A stretch of 64,000 bases of DNA from Candidatus Methylomirabilota bacterium (GCA_046727155.1 JBKPCB010000070.1:40-64039); one strand, 5' to 3'; positions 284 to 15,809 are shown, counted from the stretch's first letter. A program made the numbers and translations. The notes: generated by a model not told the origin, from the sequence alone.

Positions 284-522
284 AGGAGTTTCTCAAAGGC
301 AATTACAAGGTGGACGCCGCGATCAAGGAAAGCGAGGCGGAAGCCGAAGCGGGCGCCACCGAGGCCTTCGAGCGCAAGGCGCTGTCCCGGCTGGGCGGCA
401 GCATCTGCTTCGTGAGCAAGAAGAATTTCCTCTGGGAAGGCGACAAGCAGCAGGGCGAGGTGAAGCCGAAGGCGAGCCGAGCGGATACGAAAGATGGAAC
501 AGCGAAAGCGCGCCAAGACTGA
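280..522 (+). CDS. Small hypothetical protein (80 aa)
   Basis: ATGA overlap with the upstream stop and TGATG overlap with the downstream start; AAGGAG upstream; host-like codons. Confidence 0.7.
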   Translation: MKEFLKGNYKVDAAIKESEAEAEAGATEAFERKALSRLGGSICFVSKKNFLWEGDKQQGEVKPKASRADTKDGTAKARQD

Positions 523-1535
523 TGAACCTCGGGAAGCGGATCGCCAGCGGGCTTAAGGACGCGACTTTCGAGCGCGTCGCCGCGGTGGGGCTGGCCAATG
601 CGGAGCTCAATCGGCCGCGGATCGGCCGGTCGGTGCTCGAGCTCGGCCGGGCCTCTCTCGGCAAGGGCGACGTCGCGCTCGTGGTGGGCGCGGGACCGAG
701 CCTTCAGCGGCGGCGCAGCCTGGAGCGGCTCAAGGCCTCCGGCTTCGCCGGCACCATCGTGGCCGCCGACGGGGCGCTGGGCGCCTGTTTGCGCGCGGGA
801 GTTGTCCCGCACGTGGTCGTGAGCGTCGACCCGCATCCCGAGCGCATCGTCCGCTGGTTCGGCGATCCAGCGCTGACGGCGGCGGGTGCGGACGACTATT
901 TCAGGCGCCAGGAGATGGACCCGACGCACCATGGCGACGAGGTGGCCGCCAACCGCGCCCTCGTGGATCTGGTGGACGCCCACGGCCCGCGGATCAAGGT
1001 CGCCGTCGCCACCTCCGCGGCGCCGGCGGTGGTGGACCGCTGTGAGAAGGCCGGCATGGAGCTCTACTGGTGGAACCCGATGTACGACGACTACGACCGG
1101 CCGGGCAGCGTGTCGCGCCGGCTCTATGAAATGAACGGCCTGCCGTGCCTCAACGGCGGCGGCAATGTGGGCACCGCCGCCTGGGTCCTCGCCCACGCCG
1201 TGCTGAAGAAGCATCGCGTCGGCCTGATCGGCATGGATCTCTCCTACGCACCCGGCACCCCGTACGAGAAAACCCAGTACTACCCGGAGCTGGTGGAGCT
1301 GTTCGGTGACCGCCACACCGAGGCCTTCGTCCATGTCACCAATCCCCATCTCGGGGAGACGTGGTTCAGTGATCCCGCCTACTACTGGTTCCGCGAGGTC
1401 TTCCTCGAAATGGCGGCCGAGGCGACCTGCGAGACCTACAACTGCACCGAGGGCGGCGTGCTCTTCGGCCCGGGCATCGCCACGGTGCGGCTCGAAGAAT
1501 TCCTGGGGACAGGGAAGGACGGCCAGCATGGCTAA
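522..1535 (+). CDS. DUF115 / MAF_flag10 (Maf, MptE-like) family protein
   Basis: Motifs VVGAGPSL, ADGA, VSVDP, GGNVGT, IGMDLSY and YNCTEGG are typical of the family. Confidence 0.75.
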   Translation: MNLGKRIASGLKDATFERVAAVGLANAELNRPRIGRSVLELGRASLGKGDVALVVGAGPSLQRRRSLERLKASGFAGTIVAADGALGACLRAGVVPHVVVSVDPHPERIVRWFGDPALTAAGADDYFRRQEMDPTHHGDEVAANRALVDLVDAHGPRIKVAVATSAAPAVVDRCEKAGMELYWWNPMYDDYDRPGSVSRRLYEMNGLPCLNGGGNVGTAAWVLAHAVLKKHRVGLIGMDLSYAPGTPYEKTQYYPELVELFGDRHTEAFVHVTNPHLGETWFSDPAYYWFREVFLEMAAEATCETYNCTEGGVLFGPGIATVRLEEFLGTGKDGQHG

Positions 1536-3072
1536 GGTGCTCTTCGTCAATCCGCTGATCCGCGAGGAGGACGACCCGCGCCACGTGCCCTACGGCATGG
1601 CCCTGCTCGCTTCCCTGGCCATGCGCGACGGCCACCTCGTTCAGGTCTACGACCACAATGCCTGGCGCGCCCCGGACTCGGTGCTGGCCCAGGTGCTCAA
1701 GGCCGACGCATGGGACGTGATCGCGATCGGTGGCATCACCACCGCCTATCGCTCGATCAAGCACATCACCGCCATGGCCAGTGAGGTCGCGCCCCGGGCC
1801 CTGCGCGTCGCCGGCGGCGGCTTCCTCACCAGCATGCCGCACGACATCATGCGCTTTCTGCCCCAGGTGGACGTGGGAGCGGTGGGCGAAGCGTTCGTTT
1901 CGTTCCTCGAGCTGCTGCGGCGGGTGGACGCCGGCAATCGCGAGTGGGCCGAGGTCAAAGGCCTGATCTGGCGCGACCCCTCGGGCAAGAGCCATCTCAA
2001 CCCGGAGCAGCCGCTGCTCGAGGACCTCGACAGCCTGCCGTATCCCGCGTGGGAGCTGTTCCCGCTCGAGGTGTACTTCAAGAACAGCATGGCGCTCTTC
2101 TCCGAGGAGGGTATGCTGTCGCGCCGCCGGCTGGACATCAATGCCAGCTACGGCTGCTCGCTGATCTGCCGCTTCTGCTTCCACCTGGGCATCTCGGGGG
2201 ACATGAAGCAGGTGGAGAACGCGCAGGGCGAGCCCGACGTGACCTTCACCTACGACCGGAACATCCGCTACCACAGCCCGCGCTATGTGGTGAACCTGGT
2301 CAAGTACGCTCGGGAGCGCTTCGGCGTGGACTTTATCGGCTTCCTCGACGAGAACCTGATGACCATGCACCAGTTCTCGGGCAAAAAGTGGCTCACCGAC
2401 ATCGCCCGGCTGTGGATCGAGGACGGCCTCCAGCCCCAGTGCGTGCGCGACGGTGTGCCCCATGACCCGGAGAAGTGCTCGGGCGTCCACTGGGGCGGCA
2501 CCAGCCACGCCACGCTCTGCTCGCCCGAGGTGCTGCGGGCCATCAAGCAGTCGGGCTGCTCGCACCTGGTCTACGGCTACGAATCATTTTCGGCGCGGGT
2601 GATGAAGACCATCGGCAAGGGCGCCACGCCGGAAACCAACGAGCGCTCGCTCAAGTGGACGCTCGAGGCCGGGATCCGGCCGATTCCGAACCAGATGATG
2701 GGCTTCCCCGACGAGGATTTCGACAGCCTCAAGGACAACGTGCGCGCGTGGAACCGCCTGGGCCTCAACGTCAAGCCGTTCTTTGCGACGCCGTATCCCG
2801 GCACCGAGTGGTACTACGCCAATAAGCAGCGCATCCTCGACCAGTACGGCGGCGATCTCGAGGCCTTCCTGCTCGACGTGGGCGACGCCACCCGGGTGAC
2901 CGCCGTCATCTGCAAGAAATTCAATGCGGTGGAGCTCTACGGACTGCGCGAGCTCATGGTTCTGAGGGACCTCAAGCGCATCGAAGAGTACGAGAACGAG
3001 TGGAAACGGATTCACGCCCATGACACCCCCGCGCCGGCTCCGCCGCCGATCCTCGAGCGGGCCCGCGCGTAA
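1528..3072 (+). CDS. B12-binding radical SAM protein
   Basis: N-terminal cobalamin-binding domain (VNP...PYGMALLA, GG motifs) and CxxxCxxC (CSLICRFC), FLDEN, GYES, PYPGT; ATG at 1528 overlaps the previous gene. Confidence 0.9.
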   Translation: MAKVLFVNPLIREEDDPRHVPYGMALLASLAMRDGHLVQVYDHNAWRAPDSVLAQVLKADAWDVIAIGGITTAYRSIKHITAMASEVAPRALRVAGGGFLTSMPHDIMRFLPQVDVGAVGEAFVSFLELLRRVDAGNREWAEVKGLIWRDPSGKSHLNPEQPLLEDLDSLPYPAWELFPLEVYFKNSMALFSEEGMLSRRRLDINASYGCSLICRFCFHLGISGDMKQVENAQGEPDVTFTYDRNIRYHSPRYVVNLVKYARERFGVDFIGFLDENLMTMHQFSGKKWLTDIARLWIEDGLQPQCVRDGVPHDPEKCSGVHWGGTSHATLCSPEVLRAIKQSGCSHLVYGYESFSARVMKTIGKGATPETNERSLKWTLEAGIRPIPNQMMGFPDEDFDSLKDNVRAWNRLGLNVKPFFATPYPGTEWYYANKQRILDQYGGDLEAFLLDVGDATRVTAVICKKFNAVELYGLRELMVLRDLKRIEEYENEWKRIHAHDTPAPAPPPILERARA

Positions 3073-3087
3073 GAAGAAAGGATTCCC

Positions 3088-4071
3088 GTGAAACTCGCCA
3101 TCATCGGACTCGGCAGCATCGGCCGGCGCCACCTCGGCAACTTCAGCGCGATTGGGGTGGAAAGCCTCAGCGGATTCGACGCCGCGCAAGCCCAACGGGA
3201 GGCGGCCGCCAAGGACTTCCCGTTTGCCGCGATCGCCTCCAGCGTGGAGGCGGCGCTCGACGGCGCCGACGCAGCGGTAATCTGCACCCCGCCGGATTCC
3301 CACGTGACGCTCGGGCGCCAGGCCGCCGAGCGAGGTGCCCACCTGATGGTGGAAAAGCCCTTCGCCCAATCGGTCGAAGGCGTCGAGGAGCTCCTCAAGC
3401 TCTGCGATGCGAAAGGCCTCAAGGTGCTGACCGCCTATAACTGGCGTTACTGGCCGCCCATGCTCCTGGTCGAGAAGCTGATCAAGGACGGCCGAATCGG
3501 ACCCATCCGTGCGGCCCGCACCGAATACGCCTACCACCTGACCATCCGCTATCCCGGCAAGGACTACCGGCAGTTCTACATGGCCGACGTCAAGCAGGGC
3601 GGAGGCTGCGTGCTCGACGAGAGCCACGCCATCGATTACATGCGCTGGCTCTGCGGGGAGATCGCCGAAGTGAGCGCGGTCGTCGAGCGGGTCTCGAGCC
3701 TCGAGATCACCACCGACGACATCGCCGATCTCACGGTGCGCTTTGCCTCGGGCACCATAGGCAATATCCACATGAATCTCTTCGCCTGGAATATGCACAG
3801 CCACTTCGAGCTGATGGGCGAGGCGGGCGTGATCCAGTGGCGCCGGTTCGACAACGAGATCCGGCTCTTCGATCCCAAGGCCAACCGCTGGGAGATCTAT
3901 CCGTTCTCCTGCCAGCTCAACGACATGTACGTCGAGGAAGCCAAGCACTTCCTGGCGTGTGTCCGCGGCGAGGCCACTCCCAGGTGCGACGGCTGGGACG
4001 GGCTGAAGACCATGCGCGTGATCGAGGCGGCCCAGAAGGCGTCCGCGGAGAAGCGCTGGGTGCGGGTGTAG
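3088..4071 (+). CDS. Gfo/Idh/MocA family oxidoreductase (PtmF/ElaA-like)
   Basis: IIGLGSIG Rossmann motif, ICTP..SH, MVEKP, GGG..LDESHAID. Confidence 0.9.
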   Translation: MKLAIIGLGSIGRRHLGNFSAIGVESLSGFDAAQAQREAAAKDFPFAAIASSVEAALDGADAAVICTPPDSHVTLGRQAAERGAHLMVEKPFAQSVEGVEELLKLCDAKGLKVLTAYNWRYWPPMLLVEKLIKDGRIGPIRAARTEYAYHLTIRYPGKDYRQFYMADVKQGGGCVLDESHAIDYMRWLCGEIAEVSAVVERVSSLEITTDDIADLTVRFASGTIGNIHMNLFAWNMHSHFELMGEAGVIQWRRFDNEIRLFDPKANRWEIYPFSCQLNDMYVEEAKHFLACVRGEATPRCDGWDGLKTMRVIEAAQKASAEKRWVRV

Positions 4072-4160
4072 TGCGAGCCGAGGCACGGCCGACGAGCCGC
4101 GGGCGAGGAGCGTGACGAGGTGAGCGGTGAAATGGTTCGAAAAATGCGAGCCGAGCGAGC

Positions 4161-4916
4161 GTGAGCGTGGCGAGTTCGCCCTACGCTTTCGGGATCATCC
4201 CAGCGCGCGGCGGCTCCAAGGGGCTGCCGGGGAAGAACCTGCGCCGGCTGGGCGCGCTGAGCCTCATCGGCCACGCCGTGGCCTCGGCGCGCGAAGCCCG
4301 GCTCCTCAATCGCTTCATCGTTTCCACGGACAGTCCCGAGATCGCCGAGGAAGCCCGGCGTCACGGCGCTGAGGTGCCCTTCGTGCGCCCCGCCGAGCTG
4401 GCCAGCGACCAGGCGGGGATGCTCGGCGTGCTCCAGCATGCCGTGCGCTGGCTCGAGAGCGCGGCGGGGGTCAGGCCCGATCTCGTGGTGACGCTCCAGC
4501 CCACCTCGCCATTTCGCGTGGGCGCCGACATCGACAGGACCATCGAGAAGGTGAGTGCCACCGGCGCCGATTCGGGCCAGACCCTCTGCGAGGCCTCGTA
4601 CCACCCGTTCTTCATGAAGACGCTGGAGGGGGACCGCACCGTGGCCCTCTTCCCCGACGGGCATAAGTACGTGCGACGTCAGGACGCGCCCGCCGTCTAT
4701 CAGCCCTCCGGCGCAGTCTACGTCACGCGCTATCACGTGCTGATGGAGCAGGGGCATATCCTCGGCGACGACAACCGCGGCGTGGTGATGGGGTTCGAGG
4801 CATCGGCCAATATCGACACCGAGTGGGACTTCATGCTGGCCGAGCTCATCCTCCGCGAGGGGCGGGCGCCTATCCCTCCCGCCCGGGTGATGCCGTGGCA
4901 GCCCGCCGACTCCTGA
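4161..4916 (+). CDS. neuA: Acylneuraminate (nonulosonate) cytidylyltransferase
   Basis: IIPARGGSKGLPGKN, VSTDS, LQPTSPFR, NIDT..DF. Confidence 0.92.
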   Translation: MSVASSPYAFGIIPARGGSKGLPGKNLRRLGALSLIGHAVASAREARLLNRFIVSTDSPEIAEEARRHGAEVPFVRPAELASDQAGMLGVLQHAVRWLESAAGVRPDLVVTLQPTSPFRVGADIDRTIEKVSATGADSGQTLCEASYHPFFMKTLEGDRTVALFPDGHKYVRRQDAPAVYQPSGAVYVTRYHVLMEQGHILGDDNRGVVMGFEASANIDTEWDFMLAELILREGRAPIPPARVMPWQPADS

Positions 4917-5500
4917 TCCTGGGCGCCGGCGGTCACGCGCGCGCCGTCGCCGACGTTGCGGCCGAGTGCGGCTGGACCGTGGCGGGCTTCACCGATCGGC
5001 CGGGCGGAGCTGCCCGACCCGACGTGCTGGGCGACGATACCCAGGTCGCCGAACTGGTCCGCTCTGGCAAAGCTGACGCGGCCGTCGTGGGTGTTGGCAA
5101 TACGGCGCTCGGCCGTAGAGTTGAGCTGTTCGAGATCCTCAGGAAAGCCGATGCGGTCATTCCCAGCCTCGTCCATCCGCGGGCCATTGTGTCGCGGAGC
5201 TGTGCGATCGGCGACGGAGCGGTGGTCTTCGCGGGGGTCGTTCTGGGCGCTGGCGTCACGGTCGGGGAGAATGCGGTGCTCTACAGCAATGCCGTCGCCG
5301 AGCACGATTGCCGCATCGCCGCCCATGCCTACCTCTCGCCCGGCGTCATTCTCTGCGGCGGCGTGACGGTGGAAACCCTGGCCTTCATTGGGGCCGGCGC
5401 CGTAATTCTGCCGGGAGTCACGGTCGGGACACGCGCCATGGTCAGGGCCCGCGATCTGATCCGGAGCGATGTGCGCGTGGGAGGCAAACGCGAGTCGTGA
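4895..5500 (+). CDS. neuD: NeuD/PglD-type sugar acetyltransferase (hexapeptide repeats)
   Basis: LILGAGGHARAV, VGVGN, LVHP, VAEHDC, FIGAGAVILPG; GTG start at 4895. Confidence 0.85.
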   Translation: MAARRLLILGAGGHARAVADVAAECGWTVAGFTDRPGGAARPDVLGDDTQVAELVRSGKADAAVVGVGNTALGRRVELFEILRKADAVIPSLVHPRAIVSRSCAIGDGAVVFAGVVLGAGVTVGENAVLYSNAVAEHDCRIAAHAYLSPGVILCGGVTVETLAFIGAGAVILPGVTVGTRAMVRARDLIRSDVRVGGKRES

Positions 5501-7461
5501 GTCGCATCCTCCTCGTTGGCCAGTCCACTCGCGGCTACGGCGAGTTCCGCCGGCCCTGGGTGCGGGCGCTCTACCGGCGCTACGTCGCGCGCTATCGGCG
5601 CCGCCTCGTCGAGGCCGCGGTTCGGCTCGCGCCGGCTGGCGAGCTGACGGTGCTCGCGGCGCGGGAGCTGGTGGACGATCCGCGGCTGCCCGCCGGGACG
5701 CGCGTCTGTTACTACGACGAGGAGTCCTTCAAGGTCGACTCCGGCGAGCTGGCGCGGCTCACCCGTCGATTCACGACCGATTGGTGGCCTGCGGAGGCCG
5801 AGGCGCCGGAGCTGCTCCACCGCGGCGTCTGGCTGCCGGACGTCATCGCCGTGGTCCGCGGGATCGTGCTGCGCTCGGAGGTTATCGAGCCGCTCGGGAT
5901 CGCCGAGCGAGTGTGGCAAGACGCCAAGCCGGCCCGCCTGGTGCTGCTCACCGGCACCTCGATGCTGGAGCGGCTCTGCCGGCTGCTGGCCGAGCGCGAA
6001 CGGGTGCCCATCGAGGTGGCCGCGCCCGGCTTCGCCGCCGCCCACGCCTATGGATGGATCGCGCGGGCGCTCCAGCCGCGGGAGGAGCGGCTGAGGCTCC
6101 GCGAATTCCTCTCCTTTCCCCGTAGCGCGGTGCGGACCGGCGCGGCTGATGGCGCGCGGCGGATCCTGTTCGTCACGTGCCGCCCCCGCCATCATTTCGT
6201 CGTCGACCCGCTGACCACGGCGGTTCGAGCCACGGGAGGCGAGCCCCGTGTTATCGCCACGCCGGCGCGCGATGCGGAGCTGGCCTCGCGGCTCGAGGCG
6301 CTCGGAAAAAGCGGCGTGGCGTGCGATTACCTATCCGATTATCTGCCGCGCGCCGACGCGCTGGCGCTCGTGCGGCGCTACCGGCCGGCGCTCCGCGATC
6401 TATGGCGCAGGGTCGAGCGACGGCCGGAGTTCGCGCGAACTCTCGAACGCAACGGGCTGCCGCTGGCCGCCGTCACGCGGCCGATTCTCAGGGATTCGGT
6501 GGAGCGCACCCTGCTGGTGGCCCTCCTCTTCCAGGAGGCCGCTTTCCGCGCGCTGGACGCGCTGGCCCCCACCGCCGTGGTCGTGACCAGCAACCGGCGT
6601 TACGCGGAGCGGGCCCTCGTGCTGGCCGCCAAAGTGCGGAAGATCCCGTGCCTGCTCTTTTCCGGCACCCTCGTCATGGGCCGCGACCGGGCGGAGCTCT
6701 TCGACATCGGCGACCGGATGGTCGTCATCGGCGAGCACCTCAAGGAGCGCCTCGTCGCCGAGCAAGGCGTCGCGGCGTCGCTCATCTCGGTCGTGGGAGA
6801 TCCGCGCTCCAATGCGGCGCGGCTGATCCCGCCCACCGACCTCCGGCATCAGGTCTTCGCCGACTTCGGCCTGGCGCCGGGGAAGCCGCTTCTGGTGTTT
6901 CTCTCCAAGTATGTGTCGCTGCTCTTTTCGTCGCAGGAGAAGGAAGCCTACTACCGGACGATGATCGGCGCCTTGCCCGCTCTCGGACATCCCAACGTGG
7001 TGGTGAAGGTGCACCCCAATGAGAATCTGAGCCTGCTGAGCGAGCAGGTGAGGCGGTGGGGCTGGCCCGAGGCGATCCTGACCAAGGAGTACGACATCCA
7101 CCGCCTCTTGGCCGTGGCCGACGCCGCCGTGATGGTTACCTCCATGGCGGGCCTCGAAGCCATGGCCCTCGACTGCCCGGTGGTCTCGGTGCAGGCGGCG
7201 GGGAAGGACTACGAGGGCGAGTTCATGCCGCCCTATGTCAGTGAAGGCGTCGTGCAGCGGGTTGACATGGAGGACTCCGCGGCGCTGGCTGCGGCGCTGA
7301 AGCGACTCACCGGCGATCCCGACCGCCGCCAGGCCGTGGTCGAGCGCGGGCGAAAGTTCGCCGCCCGCTACGTCCACCCGGTGGACGGCGGCCTCGGCGA
7401 GCGGCTCCTCTCGGTGGTCGACGAGGTCCGCGGCGAGCTCGCGGGAGGCCGCACGCGATGA
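5497..7461 (+). CDS. 654-aa protein with a C-terminal GT-B-like domain; candidate nonulosonate transferase
   Basis: C-terminal VGDPR, VKVHPNE, ADAAVMVTSMAGLEA motifs resemble GT-B/epimerase/glycerophosphotransferase folds; GTGA and ATGA overlaps at both ends. Confidence 0.6.
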   Translation: MSRILLVGQSTRGYGEFRRPWVRALYRRYVARYRRRLVEAAVRLAPAGELTVLAARELVDDPRLPAGTRVCYYDEESFKVDSGELARLTRRFTTDWWPAEAEAPELLHRGVWLPDVIAVVRGIVLRSEVIEPLGIAERVWQDAKPARLVLLTGTSMLERLCRLLAERERVPIEVAAPGFAAAHAYGWIARALQPREERLRLREFLSFPRSAVRTGAADGARRILFVTCRPRHHFVVDPLTTAVRATGGEPRVIATPARDAELASRLEALGKSGVACDYLSDYLPRADALALVRRYRPALRDLWRRVERRPEFARTLERNGLPLAAVTRPILRDSVERTLLVALLFQEAAFRALDALAPTAVVVTSNRRYAERALVLAAKVRKIPCLLFSGTLVMGRDRAELFDIGDRMVVIGEHLKERLVAEQGVAASLISVVGDPRSNAARLIPPTDLRHQVFADFGLAPGKPLLVFLSKYVSLLFSSQEKEAYYRTMIGALPALGHPNVVVKVHPNENLSLLSEQVRRWGWPEAILTKEYDIHRLLAVADAAVMVTSMAGLEAMALDCPVVSVQAAGKDYEGEFMPPYVSEGVVQRVDMEDSAALAAALKRLTGDPDRRQAVVERGRKFAARYVHPVDGGLGERLLSVVDEVRGELAGGRTR

Positions 7462-8519
7462 GTCCGCGCGCGTTCACGGTGGCGGGGCGCGCGATCGGTG
7501 ACGGCGCGCCCGTCTTCATCGTGGCCGAGGCCGGCGTCAACCACAACGGCGACATGTCGCTGGCCCGCCGGCTGGTGGAGGCGGCGGCCGATGCCGGCGC
7601 CGACGCGGTGAAGTTCCAGACCTTCAGCACCGATGCTTTGGTGAGCCGGGAGGCGCCCAAGGCGACATACCAGCGCGAGAGCACCGGGGACGGCGAAAGC
7701 CAGCGCGACATGCTGGCCCGTCTCGAGCTCACCGCGGACCAGCATGCGGAGCTCCAGCAGCGGTGCGGCAAGCGGGGCCTCGTCTTCTTCTCCGCGCCCT
7801 TCGACGAGCGGGCCGCGGACGCCCTCGAGTCACTCGACGTTCCGCTCTTCAAGATCCCGTCGGGCGAGATCACCAACCTGCCGCTCCTCCGCCACATTTC
7901 CGCCAAGGGACGTCCCGTCATCCTCTCCACCGGCATGTCCACGGTCGACGAGGTCGAGACCGCCGTGGCGGCCATCCGCGATTCGGGCGACCCGCCGCTC
8001 GCGCTCCTTCACTGCCTCTCCGCCTACCCGGCTCCCGCGGCCGAGGTGAACCTGCGAGCCATGGACGTCCTGCGCCAGCGATTCGGCGTCCCGGTCGGGC
8101 TTTCGGATCACACGCTCGGGATCGAGGTCGCGGTGGCCGCGGTGGCGCGCGGCGCGCGCATTGTCGAGAAGCACCTGACTCTGGACAAGACGCTGCCGGG
8201 GCCCGACCACCGCGCGTCGCTCGATCCCGCGGAGTTCGGTGCGCTCGTCAGCGCGATCCGCTCGGTTGAGTCCGCCCTCGGCGACGGCGAGAAGCGCCCG
8301 ATGCCTTCCGAGATGGACACGCGCCGGGTGGCGCGGAAGAGCCTCGTCGCGGCGCGGGCGATTCGCGCCGGCGAGCGGCTCACGGCCGAGATGATCCGCG
8401 TCAAGCGACCCGGCACCGGCATCCCGCCAGCCGAGTTGGAGCGCGCTCTGGGCCGCCCGGTCAAGCGTGCCCTGGCCGCCGACCAGGTGATCGGCTGGGA
8501 GGATCTGGCAGAGCGATGA
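7458..8519 (+). CDS. neuB: Nonulosonic acid synthase with C-terminal SAF domain
   Basis: IVAEAGVNHNG, AVKFQT, KIPSGEITN, LSTGMS, LHCLSAYP, GLSDHT, EKHLT, KRPGTGI. Confidence 0.95.
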   Translation: MSPRAFTVAGRAIGDGAPVFIVAEAGVNHNGDMSLARRLVEAAADAGADAVKFQTFSTDALVSREAPKATYQRESTGDGESQRDMLARLELTADQHAELQQRCGKRGLVFFSAPFDERAADALESLDVPLFKIPSGEITNLPLLRHISAKGRPVILSTGMSTVDEVETAVAAIRDSGDPPLALLHCLSAYPAPAAEVNLRAMDVLRQRFGVPVGLSDHTLGIEVAVAAVARGARIVEKHLTLDKTLPGPDHRASLDPAEFGALVSAIRSVESALGDGEKRPMPSEMDTRRVARKSLVAARAIRAGERLTAEMIRVKRPGTGIPPAELERALGRPVKRALAADQVIGWEDLAER

Positions 8520-9691
8520 GCGCCGCCATGCGAAGCGTCGCTGCCGTCACGGTGAGCCGCTCGGACTGGGGGCACCTGCGCCCCGTCCTCGAGGCCATCC
8601 GCTCCAGGCCGGGGCTTTCGCTTCAGCTCTATGTGGCGGGGATGCATCTCGAGCCCGACTTCGGTCTCACAGTCCGGGACATCGAGCGAGACGGCTGGCC
8701 CATCGCGTCGCGGATCCCGATGCTCGAAACCGACGATTCGCCATCGGGAGTGGCGGCCTCCACGGGGAAGGGGATCGAGGGCTTCGCGCGCGCGTATGCC
8801 GAGACGCGACCCGACCTCGTGGTCGTCCTGGGCGATCGCTTCGAAATGCTGGCGGCCGGCGTCGCGGCCCTTCCCTTCGCGCTCCCCGTGGCTCACATCC
8901 ATGGCGGCGAGGAGACGGAAGGCGCGATGGACAATCAGATCCGTCACGCCATCACCAAGCTCGCCCATATCCATTTCGCCTCTGCCGATCTCCACGCCCG
9001 GCGGATAGCCCAAATGGGGGAGGAGGCATGGCGCATCCACACGGTGGGCGCCCCGGGCCTCGACCGACTGAGCGTGGCGACCTACCGCTCGCGCGAGGCG
9101 CTTGCAGGATCGCTCCGCCTCGACGCCGAGGCGAAGTGGCTCCTGGTCACCTTCCATCCGGTAACGCTCGAGTACCGGGATACCGCGGCGCATGTCACCG
9201 AGCTCCTGGCCACCCTCGAGAAAGCCGACGCCCAGATCGTGATGACCTATCCGAATGCAGACACGGCGGGCCGGCTCATCATCGAGCGTATCGAGGATTT
9301 CGCCTCCCGGCACCCGCGGGTGACGCTGGCCCGCTCGCTCGGGGACGAGACCTACCTCTCGCTGCTCAAGCACGCCGACGCCATGGTGGGCAATTCCTCG
9401 AGCGGCCTCATCGAGGCGCCGTCCTTCGGCCTGCCGGTGGTGAATATCGGAAACCGTCAGCGCGGCAGGCTGCGCGGGGCCAATGTCATCGACGTGGGCT
9501 ATGGCCGCGAGGACATCCTGCGGGGGCTCGAGCGGGCGCTGGAGCCCGGCTTCCGCGCCACGCTCAAAGGCATGGCCAATCCCTATGGCGATGGCCGGGC
9601 CGCGCCGCGGATCGCCGAGGTGCTTCGCACTGTCCCACTCGACGCGCGACTGATCCAGAAGCGCTTTGCCGAGGGGAGCGTGTCAGCATGA
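8516..9691 (+). CDS. neuC: Hydrolysing NDP-N-acetylglucosamine 2-epimerase (NeuC/LegG)
   Basis: VTVSRSDWG, LGDRFEML, HIHGGEET, IRHAITKL, TFHP, VGNSSSG, NIGNRQ, YGDG. Confidence 0.93.
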   Translation: MSAAMRSVAAVTVSRSDWGHLRPVLEAIRSRPGLSLQLYVAGMHLEPDFGLTVRDIERDGWPIASRIPMLETDDSPSGVAASTGKGIEGFARAYAETRPDLVVVLGDRFEMLAAGVAALPFALPVAHIHGGEETEGAMDNQIRHAITKLAHIHFASADLHARRIAQMGEEAWRIHTVGAPGLDRLSVATYRSREALAGSLRLDAEAKWLLVTFHPVTLEYRDTAAHVTELLATLEKADAQIVMTYPNADTAGRLIIERIEDFASRHPRVTLARSLGDETYLSLLKHADAMVGNSSSGLIEAPSFGLPVVNIGNRQRGRLRGANVIDVGYGREDILRGLERALEPGFRATLKGMANPYGDGRAAPRIAEVLRTVPLDARLIQKRFAEGSVSA

Positions 9692-10743
9692 CCGACCTGA
9701 CGCATGTCCTGATCAGGGAAGGCGCCACGCTGCGCCAGGTGCTCGAGGCCATGACCCGAAGCGGGAAGCAAATCGTTTTGGTCGTCGATGTCGACCGGCG
9801 CCTCGTTGGGGTCGTCACCGATGGCGACGTCCGCCGAGCGATGCTTCGCGGCGCCACGCTCGACGCCAAGGTCGAGGAAGTGGTCAACCGCAAACCCCTG
9901 ACCTTCCCGGCCGGTCTGCCGCCCGCCGAGGCCCTCGCCGTCATGCGGGATCGCTCCGTGCGTCACCTCCCCGTGCTCGACGCCGACCATCGCGTGCTGG
10001 GCCTCCTACGACTCGAGGATTTACTCGCACCGCCGCCGCTGACAGCCCGCGCCGTGATCATGGCTGGCGGGGAGGGCAGGCGCCTCAAGCCATTGACCGA
10101 GGCCACTCCCAAGCCGCTGATCGCTGTTGGCGGCAAGCCGCTGATCGAAATCATGATCGAGCGGCTTCGGCAGTCCGGCATCGCCAGCGTGCTGATCGCG
10201 GTGCACCACAAGGCGGACATGATCCGCGACCGGCTGGGCGACGGCTCACGGCTTGGGGTGACCATCGAATACATCGAGGAGCCCGAGCCGCTGGGCACGA
10301 TGGGGGCCCTGCCGCTCATGCGCGAGCGGCTCGATGCGCCCTTCTTCGTTGTCAATGCCGACATCCTGACCAAGTGCGACTTCCGCGCGATGTGGGACTA
10401 CCACCGGGGCCTGGAGTACCCCGCCATGACCGTCGGCGTGTCGCTGCACCAGGTGGACATTCCCTATGGCGAGTTCACGTTGCACGAAGGCCGGGTCACA
10501 CGGGTGGAGGAAAAGCCCCGCAAAGAATTCCCGGTCAATGCGGGGATCTATCTGCTCGACCCGTCGGCCATCGATCTGATCCCGGCGGGAGAGTACTTCG
10601 ACGCAACGGACATGATCCGCGCGCTGGTGGACCGGGGCAAGTTCGTCGCGGCCCACCTGATCCGCGAATACTGGCTGGACGTCGGTCGGGCTCACGACCT
10701 CGAAAAAGCCAACCGAGATGTTGCCGAGGGGCTGCTCGACTGA
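9688..10743 (+). CDS. CBS-domain nucleotidyltransferase (PtmE-like sugar-1-phosphate guanylyltransferase)
   Basis: N-terminal CBS pair (GVVTDGDVRR), then AVIMAGGEGRRLKPLT..PKPL, E.EPLGT, NADILT, NAGIY, W.DVG. Confidence 0.88.
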   Translation: MTDLTHVLIREGATLRQVLEAMTRSGKQIVLVVDVDRRLVGVVTDGDVRRAMLRGATLDAKVEEVVNRKPLTFPAGLPPAEALAVMRDRSVRHLPVLDADHRVLGLLRLEDLLAPPPLTARAVIMAGGEGRRLKPLTEATPKPLIAVGGKPLIEIMIERLRQSGIASVLIAVHHKADMIRDRLGDGSRLGVTIEYIEEPEPLGTMGALPLMRERLDAPFFVVNADILTKCDFRAMWDYHRGLEYPAMTVGVSLHQVDIPYGEFTLHEGRVTRVEEKPRKEFPVNAGIYLLDPSAIDLIPAGEYFDATDMIRALVDRGKFVAAHLIREYWLDVGRAHDLEKANRDVAEGLLD

Positions 10744-10745
10744 TC

Positions 10746-12038
10746 ATGAGCACGGTCGGCATCGTCGGTCTTGGCTACGTGGGCCTCACGCTGGCGGTGA
10801 CGCTGGCGCGCAAGGGCTTCACCGTTCACGGCGTGGATTCTTCGCCGCGAGTGCTGGAGGCGCTGGCGCAGAAGCGCCCGCACCTATTCGAGCCCGGCGT
10901 CGAGGAGGGGCTGCAGGCCTATCTGGGCGAGCGGCTCTTCGTGGGGCCGACGCTGCCCGAGCGCGGGATCGAGGCCGTGATCCTCTGCGTGTCCACTCCC
11001 GTCGATCCCGAGAACCACGCTCCACAGCTCGAGAACCTGAGACTGGCCGCCCGTCACATCGCCGAGCGCTGTGCCGACGGGACTCTGGTGATCGTCCGCT
11101 CCACGGTGCCCGTCGGGGCGAGCCGCGCTGTCGTGCTGCCAGAACTGAAGGCAAAGTGGCGGCGGCCTCGGCTTGCGTTCGCTCCCGAGCGGACCATCCA
11201 GGGCCAGGCGCTGCGTGAGCTTGAGGAGCTGCCCCAGGTCGTGGGCGGGCTCGACGGCGAAAGCCTCGATCTGGCCGCGGCGCTCTTCTCCCGCGTCACG
11301 CGGAAGATCGTGACCGTAGCGTCGCTCGAGGCGGCCGAGCTGGTCAAGCTCGTCAACAACTGCCACACGGACCTGATCTACTCCTATGGCAATGAGGTCG
11401 CGCTGATGGCCGAGCGCTGGGGCCTCGATCCGCTGGAGGTGATCCGGGCCGCGAACCTCGATTACCCGCGCCCCGATCTGGCCAAGCCGGGCTTCGTGGG
11501 CGGCGGCTGTCTTTCCAAGGACCCCTATATCCTCATGAGCGCCGCGGCGGCCGCGGGCTACGAGCCCTGGCTCGTCGGCCGGGCGCGGGGTCTGAACGAG
11601 CGACTGCCGATTCACGTCGCCGAGCGGCTCGTGGGGCTGATCCGCGAGACTCGCGGCCGCGCCGAGGGCGCCCGGCTCGCGGTCTTCGGCTGGGCCTACA
11701 AGGGCTGGCCGCCCACCGACGACATGCGGGGCACGCCCATCGAGCCCATGCTCCCCATCTTTCGGGCCGCCGGGCTCACCCTGCGCGGCCACGACTTCCT
11801 CGTGCGGCCCGAGGTGATCCGCAGCCTCGGCGCCGAGCCGATGACGCCTGAGGCGGCCTTCGCCGGCGCCGACGCGGTGCTGGTCGTCACCAATCATCCC
11901 GAGTACGCCAAGCTCGACCTAGGCCGGCTCCTGCCCACGCTGAAGCGGCCGGCCGCGCTCTTCGACGCTTGGCGCATCCTCGACGAGGAGGTCGTGCGCG
12001 CCGCCGGGGTTCGCTACGCGGGGATCGGCTATGGCTAA
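10746..12038 (+). CDS. Nucleotide-sugar 6-dehydrogenase (UDP-GlcNAc/ManNAc dehydrogenase family)
   Basis: GLGYVG, RSTVP, PER, KLVNN, GGGCLSKDP with catalytic Cys, DDMRGTP. Confidence 0.92.
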   Translation: MSTVGIVGLGYVGLTLAVTLARKGFTVHGVDSSPRVLEALAQKRPHLFEPGVEEGLQAYLGERLFVGPTLPERGIEAVILCVSTPVDPENHAPQLENLRLAARHIAERCADGTLVIVRSTVPVGASRAVVLPELKAKWRRPRLAFAPERTIQGQALRELEELPQVVGGLDGESLDLAAALFSRVTRKIVTVASLEAAELVKLVNNCHTDLIYSYGNEVALMAERWGLDPLEVIRAANLDYPRPDLAKPGFVGGGCLSKDPYILMSAAAAAGYEPWLVGRARGLNERLPIHVAERLVGLIRETRGRAEGARLAVFGWAYKGWPPTDDMRGTPIEPMLPIFRAAGLTLRGHDFLVRPEVIRSLGAEPMTPEAAFAGADAVLVVTNHPEYAKLDLGRLLPTLKRPAALFDAWRILDEEVVRAAGVRYAGIGYG

Positions 12039-13017
12039 GGCCCTGATCCTCGGAGGCGCGGGCTTCATCGGATATCACCTGGCGTCGCGGCTGGCCGGGG
12101 AAGGGCATGCGCTCACCCTGGTGGACGATCTCTCGCGCGGCCGTCGCGATCACGAGCTCGACGCGCTCTGCTCCCGGCCCAACGTGACGTTCATCCAGGC
12201 CGATCTGACGAGCCCGGGCGCGCTCGACGGCCTCCCGCGCGATTGGAGCCAGGTTCATATGCTGGCCGCCGTGGTCGGGGTCCGCAACGTGGAAACCGAT
12301 CCGGCGCGCGTGATCCGGGTCAATACCCTCGCCCTCATGAATGTGCTCGACTGGCTGCCCGGGCGCGGCGAGATCCTCTTCTTCGCCTCGACCAGCGAGA
12401 CCTATGCCTCCGGCGTGATGGGCGGCAGCGTGCCGGTGCCGACGCCGGAGGACGTGCCGCTCTCGGTCTCGGACGTGACGGCCCCGCGGTTTGCCTATGC
12501 GGCGAGCAAGATCCTGGGCGAGGCGGCCGTGGTTCACACCGCGAGGGCGCGCGGGCTGAAATACGTCATCGGCCGCTTCCACAATGTCTACGGCCCGCGA
12601 ATGGGCGCCGATCACGTCATCTCGGAGCTTTCGCTTCGCGCCGCCCGTCGCGAGGACCCCTTCAGGCTCTACGGCGCCGAGCAGCGGCGGGCCTTTTGCC
12701 ACGTGGCCGATGCCGTGGAGGCGGTAACGCGGCTGGTCGCGACGGAGGCGGCCTGGGGCCGGATCGTCAATATCGGCAATGACGCCGAGGAGACCAGGGT
12801 CGAGGACCTGCTGCGGCTGGTTCTCGCGGCGGCGGCGTTCAAACCCAGGATCGTCCGGATGCCCGCCCCCGCGGGGTCGGTGGCCCGGCGCTGCCCCGAC
12901 ATCGGCCGGCTGCGCTCGCTCACCGGGTTCACGCCCAAAGTGTCGCTCGAGGCGGGCGTGAAGGAGACGTTCGAGTGGTACCGCGCCTCCTGGGAGCGGG
13001 AAGGAGCGCGGCCGTGA
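12031..13017 (+). CDS. NAD-dependent epimerase/dehydratase (extended SDR)
   Basis: GGAGFIG, STSETY, YAASK (YxxxK), RFHNVYGPR. Confidence 0.9.
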   Translation: MAKALILGGAGFIGYHLASRLAGEGHALTLVDDLSRGRRDHELDALCSRPNVTFIQADLTSPGALDGLPRDWSQVHMLAAVVGVRNVETDPARVIRVNTLALMNVLDWLPGRGEILFFASTSETYASGVMGGSVPVPTPEDVPLSVSDVTAPRFAYAASKILGEAAVVHTARARGLKYVIGRFHNVYGPRMGADHVISELSLRAARREDPFRLYGAEQRRAFCHVADAVEAVTRLVATEAAWGRIVNIGNDAEETRVEDLLRLVLAAAAFKPRIVRMPAPAGSVARRCPDIGRLRSLTGFTPKVSLEAGVKETFEWYRASWEREGARP

Positions 13018-14180
13018 GCGACTCGCGCCGGATCATCCCCAATGCCGTGCCCCACCTCGCGGGAAACGAGTGGAAGTACGTCAAGGAGTGTCTCGATACC
13101 AACTGGGTGTCGTCGGCGGGACCATTCGTCGAGCGCTTTGAGCGCGAGGTGGCCGCCTATGTCGGTGTGCCTCACGCGGTAGCCACGGTGAACGGCACCG
13201 CGGCTCTCCACGCGGCGCTGCTCGCCGCGGGCGTGGAGCCGGGCGACGAGGTGCTGCTGCCCACGCTCACCTTCATCGCCACGGCCAATGCCGTCGCTTA
13301 TTGCGGCGCCCACCCGGTCTTTCTCGACTCGGAGCGCGCGTCGTGGGGGCTCGACGCGGAGAAAACCGCGGACTTCCTCTCGCGCGAATGCGCGGTCAAG
13401 GACGGCCGCGTGGTGAACCGCGCCACCGGCCGAGTCGTCCGCGCGCTGATGCCGGTGCACCTCTACGGGCACCCTTGCGATCTCGATCCGCTGCTGGCGC
13501 TCGCGCAGCGCTTTCCGCTGGCCGTGGTGGAGGATTCCGCCGAGGCCCTCGGCGCCCGGTACAAGGGCCGGCGCGCTGGAGCTGACGGGCTGGCTGGCTG
13601 CCTGTCGTTCAACGGCAACAAGATCATCACCTCGGGCGGAGGCGGCATGGTGCTGACCCGGGACGAGGGGCTGGCGGCGCGCGTCCGGGCGCTGACCACC
13701 CAGGCGCGGGGTGACGCGCTCGAATTCGTCCACGACGAGGTCGGCTTCAACTACCGGCTCACCAATCTCCAGGCTGCCCTCGGCGTGGCCCAGCTCGAGC
13801 AGCTTGACGGCTTCATCGAGGACAAGCGCGCGACGGCCGCGCACTACGCGCGGGCTCTGGGCGAGATCGAGGGCGTCAGCGTGTTCACCGAGGCGCCCTG
13901 GGCGCGGAGCACGTACTGGATGGCCTCGGTGCTGCTCGACGGCCACCGTTGCGCCGATGTGCGCGCCTTCCTTCGCGATCTCAACGCGGCGGGTATTGAG
14001 GCCCGGCCGCTCTGGCGACCGCTCCACCTGCAGCCGGCCTTCGCAGCGGCGCAATCCTATCGGGTCGAGGTGGCGGCGGAGCTCTACGAGCGGGGCCTCT
14101 CGCTGCCCTGTTCGGTGGGGATCACGCCGGCGGACCGCGATACCGTGGTTCGCGAGCTGGTCGCGCGGCTGAGCCCATGA
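13014..14180 (+). CDS. legC: LegC-family DegT/DnrJ sugar aminotransferase
   Basis: VP.LAGNEWKYVKECLDTNWVSSAG, VNGTAALH, EDSAEALG, SFNGNKIITSGGGG, HDEVGFNYR, ARPLW. Confidence 0.88.
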   Translation: MSDSRRIIPNAVPHLAGNEWKYVKECLDTNWVSSAGPFVERFEREVAAYVGVPHAVATVNGTAALHAALLAAGVEPGDEVLLPTLTFIATANAVAYCGAHPVFLDSERASWGLDAEKTADFLSRECAVKDGRVVNRATGRVVRALMPVHLYGHPCDLDPLLALAQRFPLAVVEDSAEALGARYKGRRAGADGLAGCLSFNGNKIITSGGGGMVLTRDEGLAARVRALTTQARGDALEFVHDEVGFNYRLTNLQAALGVAQLEQLDGFIEDKRATAAHYARALGEIEGVSVFTEAPWARSTYWMASVLLDGHRCADVRAFLRDLNAAGIEARPLWRPLHLQPAFAAAQSYRVEVAAELYERGLSLPCSVGITPADRDTVVRELVARLSP

Positions 14181-15019
14181 CTCCCGAGATCTCAGAGACG
14201 GCACCGGCGGCCGCCGGCCCGCAGTCAGGCTGGCCGGAGCCGGTGAGGCGCCGGCTCACCGACTACTACACGCGCTACTACCGCGACGCCCTCGGCATCC
14301 CGAGCTGGCGCGAGCTGGTGGCGACCCGGATGGACGAGGAGGCCTATGAGGCCGGTCATCTGGCGCGCGTCGAGCGGCTGCTGGGACGATCGCTCGCCGG
14401 CCTGAATGTCCTCAACGTGGGGTGCGGGACGGGCGGCTTCACCGTGACGGCGCGGCGAGCGGGCGCGCGGTGCGTCGGGGTGGACGCCGAGCCCGATGCC
14501 GTCGCGATCTGCCGGCTGAAGGCCGAGCGTGGCGGCCCCTCCGCCATCCTCGGCGCCGCCGAGGCGCTCCCGTTCCGCGGCGGGGCCTTCGATCTGGCCT
14601 ACTGCTTCTCCACTCTCGAACACGTCGCCGACGTCCGTGCCGCGGTCCGTGAGATGGTCCGTGTGACGCGGCCCGGCGGCGCCGTCTACGTCCACGGGCC
14701 CAACGCGCTGGCCTGCTACGAGGGGCATTACAAGCTCTTCTGGCTGCCGCGCATGCCCAAGGCCCTCGCCCGCTGGTACCTCCGGCTCCGCGGGCGCCCC
14801 ACGGGCTTCGTGGACACGCTCAACCCCCTGCTCGGCGGCCGCATCCGGCGGCTCTTCAGCGCGGCCGGCGCGCGGCCCGCGGCAGTGCCGGCGGACGACG
14901 CCTTGCCGCGGGAATCGGGCAGCCCGCTCTGGCCGCTGGTGCGCGCCTACTACCGCCTCTTCGGCGTCTCGCCGAGCATCGAGATCCTGGCGCTGAAGGG
15001 GCCGGACGCGAAGGCGTGA
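14177..15019 (+). CDS. Class I SAM-dependent methyltransferase
   Basis: VLNVGCGTGG, LPF..GAFD, LEHV, RPGG. Confidence 0.88.
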   Translation: MTPEISETAPAAAGPQSGWPEPVRRRLTDYYTRYYRDALGIPSWRELVATRMDEEAYEAGHLARVERLLGRSLAGLNVLNVGCGTGGFTVTARRAGARCVGVDAEPDAVAICRLKAERGGPSAILGAAEALPFRGGAFDLAYCFSTLEHVADVRAAVREMVRVTRPGGAVYVHGPNALACYEGHYKLFWLPRMPKALARWYLRLRGRPTGFVDTLNPLLGGRIRRLFSAAGARPAAVPADDALPRESGSPLWPLVRAYYRLFGVSPSIEILALKGPDAKA

Positions 15020-15023
15020 GGAC

Positions 15024-15809
15024 ATGACGGGCGCGGCGGTCGCGCTCCGGATGGACGACGTCGGCGCCGCCTCCAAGCGCAACGAGGTGTACGGGATCAC
15101 CCGCCTGCGCGTGGGCCCACTCGCCGTGCCGTTTCCCGGCAATCTGCTTTTTCTCAAGTACCTGCCGCCCATCAAGCGATGGGGACCCTACCGCGAGCTT
15201 GACGCGCGCGACTGGCAGGCGGTACTCGACCTGCTCGCCGCTCGGGGCTCCCGGATGACGGTGGGAGTCACGGCGGGGAGGGTGGAGACCGACGGAAGCG
15301 TGACACCGTATCCGAAGAAATTCCGGGAGGCGAGCCGGCTCGTGCGAGAAGGCGTGGAGCGCGGCCTGCTGGAGGTGGCCAACCACGGCTACACCCACTG
15401 CGTGCTGCAGGACGGCCGCTTTCGGCCGCGCTGGTTCAGCGGCAACCGGGCGGACCATCGGGAGTTCTACGACTGGCTGCCAGAGGGCGTTCACCAAGAG
15501 CACCTGCGCCGCGCGCAAGACATCCTCCAGGGATTCCTCGGCCGCGCGGTGGTGACTCTGGTGCCGCCCGGCAACGTGCTCTCCCGCAAGACGCTGGCCG
15601 CGGCGGCGAAGGCCGGCATCCGCTACGTCTCCTGTCTGGGCGCCGAGCGATGGGCGCCTGCCAACGGCCTGCGGCTGGTCGACGACTCGCGCGTCATGGC
15701 CTTTCACGACCGCGACGTCGTGCGGGGCGGACGGGCGTGGCTCGACCGGGCGCTTGCGGGGGCGCCGCCGGGCGGCTTCAGAACCATCGGAGAGGTGGCC
15801 GCGGCGTGA
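15024..15809 (+). CDS. Polysaccharide deacetylase-like protein (NodB/DUF2334-like)
   Basis: [22 protein letters not shown]. Confidence 0.7.

Follow-up and report, generated by a model that had tools for sequence, protein, structure and literature searches.

A three-gene unit encoding a small conserved protein, a short Maf-like protein and a class-B radical S-adenosylmethionine (SAM) enzyme recurs in nonulosonic-acid operons across many phyla and was previously unstudied. It is described here from a 64,000-nucleotide stretch of the genome of a soil Rokubacteria (Candidatus Methylomirabilota) bacterium (GCA_046727155.1, JBKPCB010000070.1:40-64039; hereafter the window), which begins at base 40 of its contig. 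The three genes lie near the start of the window on the + strand: a small open reading frame (ORF) of 80 amino acids (aa) without a Pfam match (280-522), a DUF115/MptE-like core of 337 aa (522-1535; PF01973, 60.5 bits), referred to as Maf-core or mini-Maf, and the radical SAM enzyme of 514 aa (1528-3072; PF04055, 53.5 bits; B12-binding PF02310, 39.5 bits at a cut-off of 32.1), referred to as rSAM. The true start of rSAM is the ATG at 1528; the longest ORF would begin at 1306. We propose that rSAM may radically modify a legionaminic-type sugar, free or activated with cytidine monophosphate (CMP), probably by C-methylation, and that the modified sugar would then be transferred by mini-Maf, of which the small protein would be a subunit. 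We give this proposal a probability of about one half.

The unit was followed through 138 distinct pooled loci, 128 of which extended at least 1.5 kb upstream and 69 at least 8 kb on both sides. Maf-core adjoined rSAM in 127 of the 128 loci with upstream sequence, and the small ORF was present directly 5' of Maf-core in 126. Genes for NeuB, NeuC or a CMP-synthetase were found in 68 of the 69 loci with long flanks. The carriers belonged to Rokubacteria, Nitrospira, SAR11, the candidate phyla radiation (CPR), Acidobacteria, Myxococcota and Alpha-, Beta- and Gammaproteobacteria. Cultured strains with the trio include Paramagnetospirillum caucaseum SO-1, Methylobacter tundripaludum SV96, Colwellia chukchiensis and Kordiimonadales IMCC3096. 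Both in Nitrospira and in Pelagibacteraceae the gene order was CMP-synthetase, small ORF, MptE-like gene, rSAM, with NeuB/NeuC directly after the trio in the former and just upstream of it in the latter. The trio is inherited together across many phyla, almost always inside or beside such sugar operons. Within the window, the start and stop codons of its genes overlap (small ORF and Maf-core: TGATG; Maf-core and rSAM: 8 nt), as do those of a partial ORF at 2-283 and the small ORF (ATGA). The small ORF, Maf-core and rSAM are translationally coupled.

A preliminary description of this DNA had singled out four adjacent genes, for a Maf protein, rSAM, a Gfo/Idh/MocA oxidoreductase and a CMP-transferase, as a candidate module for new nonulosonate tailoring chemistry. 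All four genes are real, lie on the + strand and are placed as claimed. As a module the four did not hold up: the conserved unit is instead the small protein with Maf-core and rSAM, the 80-aa ORF at 280-522 having been overlooked.

Among 251 genomes of the phylum, rSAM was encoded in 31 (12 of 68 genera) and NeuB in 91. NeuB was present in 27 of the 31 rSAM carriers, versus 64 of the 220 non-carriers (odds ratio 16.5, p = 6e-10), and in the four carriers without NeuB the contig bearing rSAM was short or ended close to the gene. Because of these counts, we regard the trio as accessory to some nonulosonic-acid loci rather than as belonging to the core pathway. Co-occurrence of rSAM with Maf and neuB, which the preliminary description had put forward as a check, was strongly positive for both. 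A patchy, island-like spread (31/251 genomes of the phylum, 5/83 genomes of the Magnetospirillum family) is also compatible with a trio that acts on something other than the nonulosonic acid, such as another sugar or a lipid carrier of the same surface glycan, and that travels with these operons only as part of mobile glycan islands. Locus L164 (Methylobacter tundripaludum), which shows no nonulosonic-acid gene within 10 kb, and Magnetospirillum gryphiswaldense MSR-1, in which the trio is about 10 kb away from the CMP-synthetase gene, point the same way. We nevertheless consider this explanation very improbable, given that many phyla have the trio directly after the CMP-synthetase gene and next to NeuB/NeuC in one operon, that the fold of Maf-core belongs to CMP-nonulosonate transferases, and that nonulosonic-acid genes accompany the trio in 68/69 long loci.

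Several loci showed variant arrangements. In L049 (10001-12936) the order was permuted to rSAM, Maf-core, small ORF, with all three genes still adjacent. An insertion of ~1.5-2 kb separated Maf-core from rSAM in L015 (7922-10008), L016, L018, L021, L022, L023 and L037; the L015 insert, the one that was read, carried SAM-methyltransferase and polysaccharide-deacetylase genes, and the methyltransferase/deacetylase pair of the window (14177-15809) gave no tblastn match to it. In loci L060 and L061, from genus g47 of the same phylum, the trio belonged to a second, divergent subfamily (38% identity for rSAM, 36% for Maf-core); behind it lay the genes for NeuD, NeuB, Gfo and two CMP-synthetases. The small ORF of this subfamily encodes 71 aa (MGYLRTNYRK...FENLALKNIAGSITVY). 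The SAR11 locus L058 (4011-4916, 14564-21560) also encoded a formyltransferase, a HisF/HisH-like pair (acetamidino-type amidotransferase), a second CMP-synthetase and a SPASM radical SAM protein. Three loci labelled as Limnocylindria, Binatia and Nitrosotalea (L007, L017 and L020) had an rSAM 79-83% identical to that of Methylomirabilota in the same synteny, and their contigs are probably mis-binned.

The architecture of rSAM is that of class B, with both the radical SAM barrel (PF04055) and the B12-binding domain (PF02310) recognized by Pfam and in the fold. Its AlphaFold2 (AF2) model had a mean predicted local distance difference test (pLDDT) score of 88.9, with the barrel at high confidence, and a Foldseek search with this model returned TsrM, OxsB, MgmA, AprD4, CysS and TokK at 14-18% identity. 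When the PDB was searched with a sequence profile, AprD4 was the best match (E 5.6e-7), followed by CysS, MgmA, TokK and TsrM. Membership in a named class-B subfamily (BchE, HpnJ, HpnR, PhpK, KedN5, BzaD, MgmA, the C-methylases of ribosomally synthesized and post-translationally modified peptides (RiPPs), AprD4) was considered and rejected, all 13 NCBIfam matches being partial and far under cut-off; the best was BchE, with 76.9 bits versus a cut-off of 481. Nor did rSAM group with enzymes of a known unrelated substrate, every NCBIfam class-B model scoring far under its cut-off. We recovered 1608 homologues, the best 120 of which were 68-100% identical to rSAM. Identity was 51-65% to genes of Nitrospira, Elusimicrobia, CPR, Alphaproteobacteria (including Pelagibacteraceae) and Polyangia, and database names were generic or wrong (e.g. 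'BchE cyclase', 'YgiQ'). The SAR11 and CPR carrier genomes held several B12-domain rSAM-like ORFs. As judged from sequence and predicted fold, rSAM is an enzyme of class-B architecture from an unnamed, highly conserved family.

The CxxxCxxC motif and an insertion with two extra cysteines had been reported for rSAM in the preliminary description, and both the motif and the quoted stretch, QCVRDGVPHDPEKC, which contains C305 and C317, are present. Across 54 homologues, the motif cysteines C210, C214 and C217 were invariant, as was C344, the only other invariant cysteine. The two extra cysteines were conserved in only 85% (C305) and 81% (C317) of the homologues, and therefore do not form a family-wide auxiliary cluster; with C344 as the single further invariant cysteine, such a cluster was rejected.

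Methylation of unactivated sp3 carbons, in sugars and in CMP-linked substrates, is established for class-B radical SAM enzymes such as GenK, Fom3 (acting on HEP-CMP), TokK and CysS. With GenK (gentamicin C6'), Fom3 (2-hydroxyethylphosphonate-CMP, HEP-CMP), TokK, CysS and TsrM, rSAM has in common a two-domain layout of an N-terminal Rossmann-type B12 domain and a CxxxCxxC TIM barrel. By its likeness to Fom3, a cytidylylated substrate would be expected for rSAM, and by its likeness to GenK, TokK and CysS, carbon addition at an unactivated sp3 carbon. It differs from these methylases in coming with Maf-core and the small protein, which are found with none of them.

Other observations on rSAM would suit an enzyme that tailors the nonulosonic acid or its precursor without methylating it, whether by epimerization (e.g. 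at C8), by dehydration or deoxygenation together with a reductase, or by skeletal rearrangement, in a cobalamin-independent or rearrangement-type reaction. The best PDB sequence match, AprD4, is a diol dehydratase, the ring-contracting OxsB is among the top fold matches, and HpnJ and BchE gave the best partial NCBIfam matches. In addition, the invariant Cys344 lies outside the cluster motif and could be a hydrogen-atom donor, and the Gfo oxidoreductase gene adjoins rSAM in this phylum. On the other hand, the B12-binding domain of rSAM passes the Pfam cut-off, most characterized class-B enzymes are methylases, legionaminic acid is without a vicinal diol for chemistry of the AprD4 type, and the Gfo gene is unlinked to rSAM outside Methylomirabilota. 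On balance, a reaction of this kind seems improbable to us.

The AF2 model of Maf-core (pLDDT 91.9) was used for a Foldseek search of the PDB. The top match was the Maf glycosyltransferase of Magnetospirillum magneticum AMB-1 (5mu5; E 1.2e-7, 325 columns), a match that covers part of its 632-residue chain (target-normalised TM-score 0.29), and archaeal MptE (8sd5) came next. The motifs GPS, GGNVGT, GMD and NCTEGG were conserved in Maf-core. Its conserved C-terminal half matched the NCBIfam model PseD (Maf), to which Maf-core scored 34 bits at a cut-off of 670, and MptE has no counterpart of this half beyond the GMD motif. The C-terminal half thus reads as putatively Maf-type. The fold and the Maf-type C-terminal motifs suggest that mini-Maf is probably a CMP-nonulosonate-dependent transferase with a non-flagellar acceptor.

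The label 'Maf' given to this gene in the preliminary description was apt for the DUF115/MptE-like core but not for the protein as a whole. Maf proteins such as that of AMB-1 (5mu5) share with mini-Maf the DUF115 core fold and the setting among CMP-nonulosonate genes, but they comprise ~440-820 aa and carry flagellin-binding or tetratricopeptide repeat (TPR) domains, whereas mini-Maf has 337 aa and neither type of domain flanking its core. A search for flagellin (PF00669) gave no match in the genome from which the window derives (75% complete), and no flagellar gene turned up among ~30 scanned ORFs in the first 32 kb of the window. Only one MptE-like gene was found in this genome. A role as flagellin glycosyltransferase was rejected for this genome on these grounds (no flagellin match, core-only fold, single MptE-like gene), and 'motility factor' is a misnomer here because no flagellin was found in the genome. 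To our knowledge, no radical SAM partner has been described for Maf systems. In Shewanella, Maf-2 and GlfM constitute a two-protein transferase, in which a short Maf works with a small protein encoded beside it; GlfM is predicted to be a four-helix bundle, binds Maf-2, and has F24, R25, D77 and E80 as reported motif residues (10.1101/2023.12.03.569772). The window likewise has a short Maf with an adjacent small protein, although the likeness is functional only: the motifs reported for GlfM differ from the LKGNY...LGGSI.FV of the window protein, the two being set apart by the description of GlfM, not by sequence. In the Nitrospira locus L057 (16132-19979), an 881-aa MptE-like protein with TPR (full Maf/FlmG-style) and then a BNR-repeat sialidase-like protein were encoded directly after the Leg genes. 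This locus holds two different DUF115 proteins, and mini-Maf is therefore a distinct component.

Unannotated ORFs homologous to 280-522 of the window were found in Nitrospira (81 aa) and Pelagibacteraceae (54 aa), and a hidden Markov model built from these ORFs was used to scan the loci. Most relatives of the small protein had 54-84 aa. They were characterized by an N-terminal M..LKGNY motif and by FE+KAL.+LGGSI.FV.KK..W.G, with a variable acidic linker in between; residues M1, L5, G7, N8, F30, G39, G40, S41 and V45 were invariant. The C-terminal tail was variable, and no leader/core layout was apparent. A profile search of 1.84 billion representatives yielded 243 clusters at 50% identity, nearly all of them stand-alone proteins of 45-110 aa. 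Natural fusions to the N-terminus of Maf-core were also found. In P0268 (410 aa), residues 1-60 correspond to the small protein and residues 77-403 to Maf-core at 48% identity. A second, unrelated fusion occurred in L056, which comes from a metagenome-assembled genome with a fragmented-looking rSAM gene, so that the fusion there may be an assembly frameshift. Because of these fusions, we propose that the small protein may be a subunit of mini-Maf.

The invariant residues of the small protein also led us to weigh a protein-templated process, in which mini-Maf would O-glycosylate the invariant serine of the GGS motif with a nonulosonic acid and rSAM would modify the tethered sugar or the peptide, making the small protein a carrier or RiPP-like substrate. 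Ser41 and Asn8 are both invariant, Maf enzymes are described in the literature as O-glycosylating Ser/Thr, the partial NCBIfam matches of rSAM include the RiPP methylases ApyD and rSAM_ocin_1, and MgmA, a protein methylase, is among its top fold matches. A carrier or substrate would be at odds with the fusion of the small protein to the Maf-core N-terminus in two lineages, and with its variable tail and missing leader/core layout. Moreover, the unusual sugars of MSR-1, discussed below, were seen as free CMP-sugars, and the two loci with complete gene tables showed no conserved protease or exporter next to the trio, a screen that did not extend across all loci. We hold such a process to be quite improbable.

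Non-canonical tailoring of a legionaminic-type nonulosonic acid, as first suggested in the preliminary description, is a reasonable reading of these observations, and for the step catalysed by rSAM we infer C-methylation or epimerization. In the mechanism to which we assign the probability given at the outset, rSAM would abstract a hydrogen atom from the nonulosonic acid at a carbon that is not activated, and would most likely do so at the CMP-sugar stage; Fom3 provides a precedent, since its substrate is CMP-linked and it, too, belongs to class B. The rSAM enzyme would then most likely install a carbon-bound methyl group via a cobalamin cofactor, which would leave the sugar branched or with its chain extended to ten carbons. 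Transfer of the modified CMP-sugar would be the dedicated task of mini-Maf together with its proposed subunit, the small protein, and the acceptor would be non-flagellar, either a glycan or a surface protein. A mini-Maf specialized for the modified donor would explain why the three genes were never separated.

Sugars of this kind may already have been recorded, in the only bacterium known to produce unexplained ten-carbon 'sialic acids'. In Magnetospirillum gryphiswaldense DSM 6361, CMP-activated species of m/z 679.1983, 693.2139 and 707.2296 were reported in the SugarBase preprint, and the marker fragment of the 1,2-diamino-4,5-methylenedioxybenzene (DMB) derivatives lay at 311.10 and not at 297.09, a shift indicative of an extended (C10) carbon backbone; no genes were assigned (10.64898/2026.04.20.719630). 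The same had been observed earlier by Kleikamp et al. 2020 (PMC8157484). Within the GTDB family of Paramagnetospirillum caucaseum, rSAM was encoded in 5 of 83 genomes, including genome G292, which we take to be M. gryphiswaldense MSR-1. Here the small ORF, Maf-core and rSAM lie on one strand, ~10 kb downstream of a dehydratase-aminotransferase-NeuC-NeuB-PtmE-Gfo-CMPt block on the same strand. On the chromosome, Maf-core occupies about 3,498,675-3,499,664 and rSAM about 3,499,700-3,501,181. These observations allow the tentative suggestion, which we hold to be possible rather than probable, that rSAM C-methylates CMP-legionaminic acid, for example by converting the terminal C9 methyl to an ethyl group, and thus gives rise to the C10 ulosonic acids of M. 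gryphiswaldense, with mini-Maf and its small subunit as the matching transferase. The link between the trio and the C10 sugars of MSR-1 is circumstantial.

A number of points weigh against the proposed methylation and transfer, and against their extension to MSR-1. No functional subfamily matches rSAM, and its identity to each of the solved relatives is 14-18%. AprD4 has a class-B-like layout, works without cobalamin and is a dehydratase; since this cobalamin-independent enzyme is the best PDB sequence match, cobalamin use and methyl transfer by rSAM are not secure. Over the N-terminal 65 residues of Maf-core, MptE, a pterin pyrophosphokinase of archaea, slightly outscores Maf by sequence profile. 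As for MSR-1, the assignment of G292 to this strain was inferred, partly from family membership and not from a named record. Its trio is ~10 kb from the CMP-synthetase gene and not beside it, and the genome contains three NeuB paralogues; the C10 sugars could come from a heptose-type precursor and one of these paralogues.

The window has a G+C content of ~69%, and a single compact, co-directional operon on the + strand occupies its first 14 kb; all of the following genes belong to it. The partial ORF at the very beginning (2-283) is cut by the contig end and has no Pfam match; its conservation 5' of the small ORF, at 43-75% identity, is confined to Methylomirabilota loci. Downstream of rSAM lie the Gfo/Idh/MocA oxidoreductase gene in a PtmF-like position (3088-4071; PF01408, PF02894, PF22725) and a putative CMP-nonulosonate synthetase gene encoding a LegF/PseF-like cytidylyltransferase (4161-4916; PF02348 (CTP_transf_3), 72 bits; TIGR03584 PseF, 135 bits, under the cut-off of 205.7). 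They are followed by a NeuD/PglD-type, LegH-like N-acetyltransferase (4823-5500; PglD_N, Hexapep; TIGR03570, 158.3 bits, just below the cut-off of 160.8), whose real start is probably near 4900. The next gene (5497-7461) encodes a 654-aa protein with weak matches only, resembling a 'surface carbohydrate biosynthesis protein' with a weakly GT-B-like C-terminus. Most Methylomirabilota loci have this protein, at 45-56% identity, in the same place between NeuD and NeuB, and it may be a further (second) nonulosonic-acid transferase. The NeuB/LegI-type nonulosonate synthase (7458-8519; PF03102, 329 bits; TIGR03569, 461 bits, cut-off 399.65) and the NeuC/LegG-type hydrolysing 2-epimerase (8516-9691; TIGR03568, 444 bits, cut-off 235.9) both scored above their equivalog cut-offs. 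Further downstream are a PtmE-like CBS-domain sugar-1-phosphate nucleotidyltransferase (9688-10743; two CBS domains, NTP_transferase), a nucleoside diphosphate (NDP)-sugar dehydrogenase resembling UDP-ManNAc dehydrogenase (10749-12038; TIGR03026, 279 bits, above cut-off, and Pfam matches), a LegB-like NAD-dependent 4,6-dehydratase/epimerase (12031-13017; PF01370, PF16363) and a LegC-like DegT-type aminotransferase (12975-14180; PF01041, 350 bits). The NDP-sugar dehydrogenase gene, between the PtmE-like and LegB-like genes, is outside the canonical Leg pathway. Downstream of the operon lies a Wzy-type polysaccharide locus that encodes numerous GT4/GT2 enzymes and methyltransferases.

Besides the synthase and the 2-epimerase, the dehydratase, C4 aminotransferase, N-acetyltransferase, CMP-synthetase and PtmE-type nucleotidyltransferase were all matched at domain level, the CMP-synthetase and the acetyltransferase scoring under their equivalog cut-offs. 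The operon is thus predicted to encode every usual step of a pathway to a legionaminic-acid-type 5,7-diamino nonulosonic acid, via the nucleotide-sugar (GDP-type) route with a PtmE-like enzyme, the configuration of the product (Leg versus 4-epi, 8-epi, Aci or others) not being fixed by sequence alone. For each canonical step of the Leg/ptm cluster of Campylobacter jejuni (LegB, C, H, G, I, F; PtmE, PtmF), the window contains a corresponding gene, and its Gfo gene adjoins the CMP-synthetase gene just as ptmF adjoins legF in C. jejuni. In comparison to that cluster, the window adds the trio, the 654-aa protein and the NDP-sugar dehydrogenase, and its operon is followed by the methyltransferase-rich Wzy-type locus, not by flagellar genes.

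The Gfo and CMP-synthetase genes, which had been taken for part of the new tailoring chemistry, look like the usual ptmF-legF pair. Gfo adjoined rSAM only in Methylomirabilota loci, and its inclusion in a novel module was rejected for this reason. The order NeuC-NeuB-CBS/NTP-Gfo-CMPt in MSR-1 is one that we take to mirror legG-legI-ptmE-ptmF-legF of C. jejuni. Since Gfo elsewhere occupies this ptmE-ptmF-legF-like position, it appears, together with the CMP-synthetase gene, to belong to the ordinary Leg pathway.

Nonulosonic acids are displayed on bacterial surfaces, where they influence how phages, hosts and the immune system recognize the cell. Our full-text literature search returned no paper that ties radical SAM enzymes to nonulosonic, legionaminic or pseudaminic acids or to flagellin glycosylation, and the nonulosonic-acid tailoring described in the searched literature is N- or O-linked. 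If the proposed role of rSAM is correct, a radical, probably carbon-carbon-forming step would represent a new type of chemistry for nonulosonic acids. With the trio present in the non-pathogenic, genetically tractable MSR-1, for which C10 ulosonic acids have been measured, an analytical puzzle would become genetically addressable. If the link to these acids also holds, ten-carbon sialic-acid-like sugars would be a widespread and overlooked class of bacterial surface sugars.

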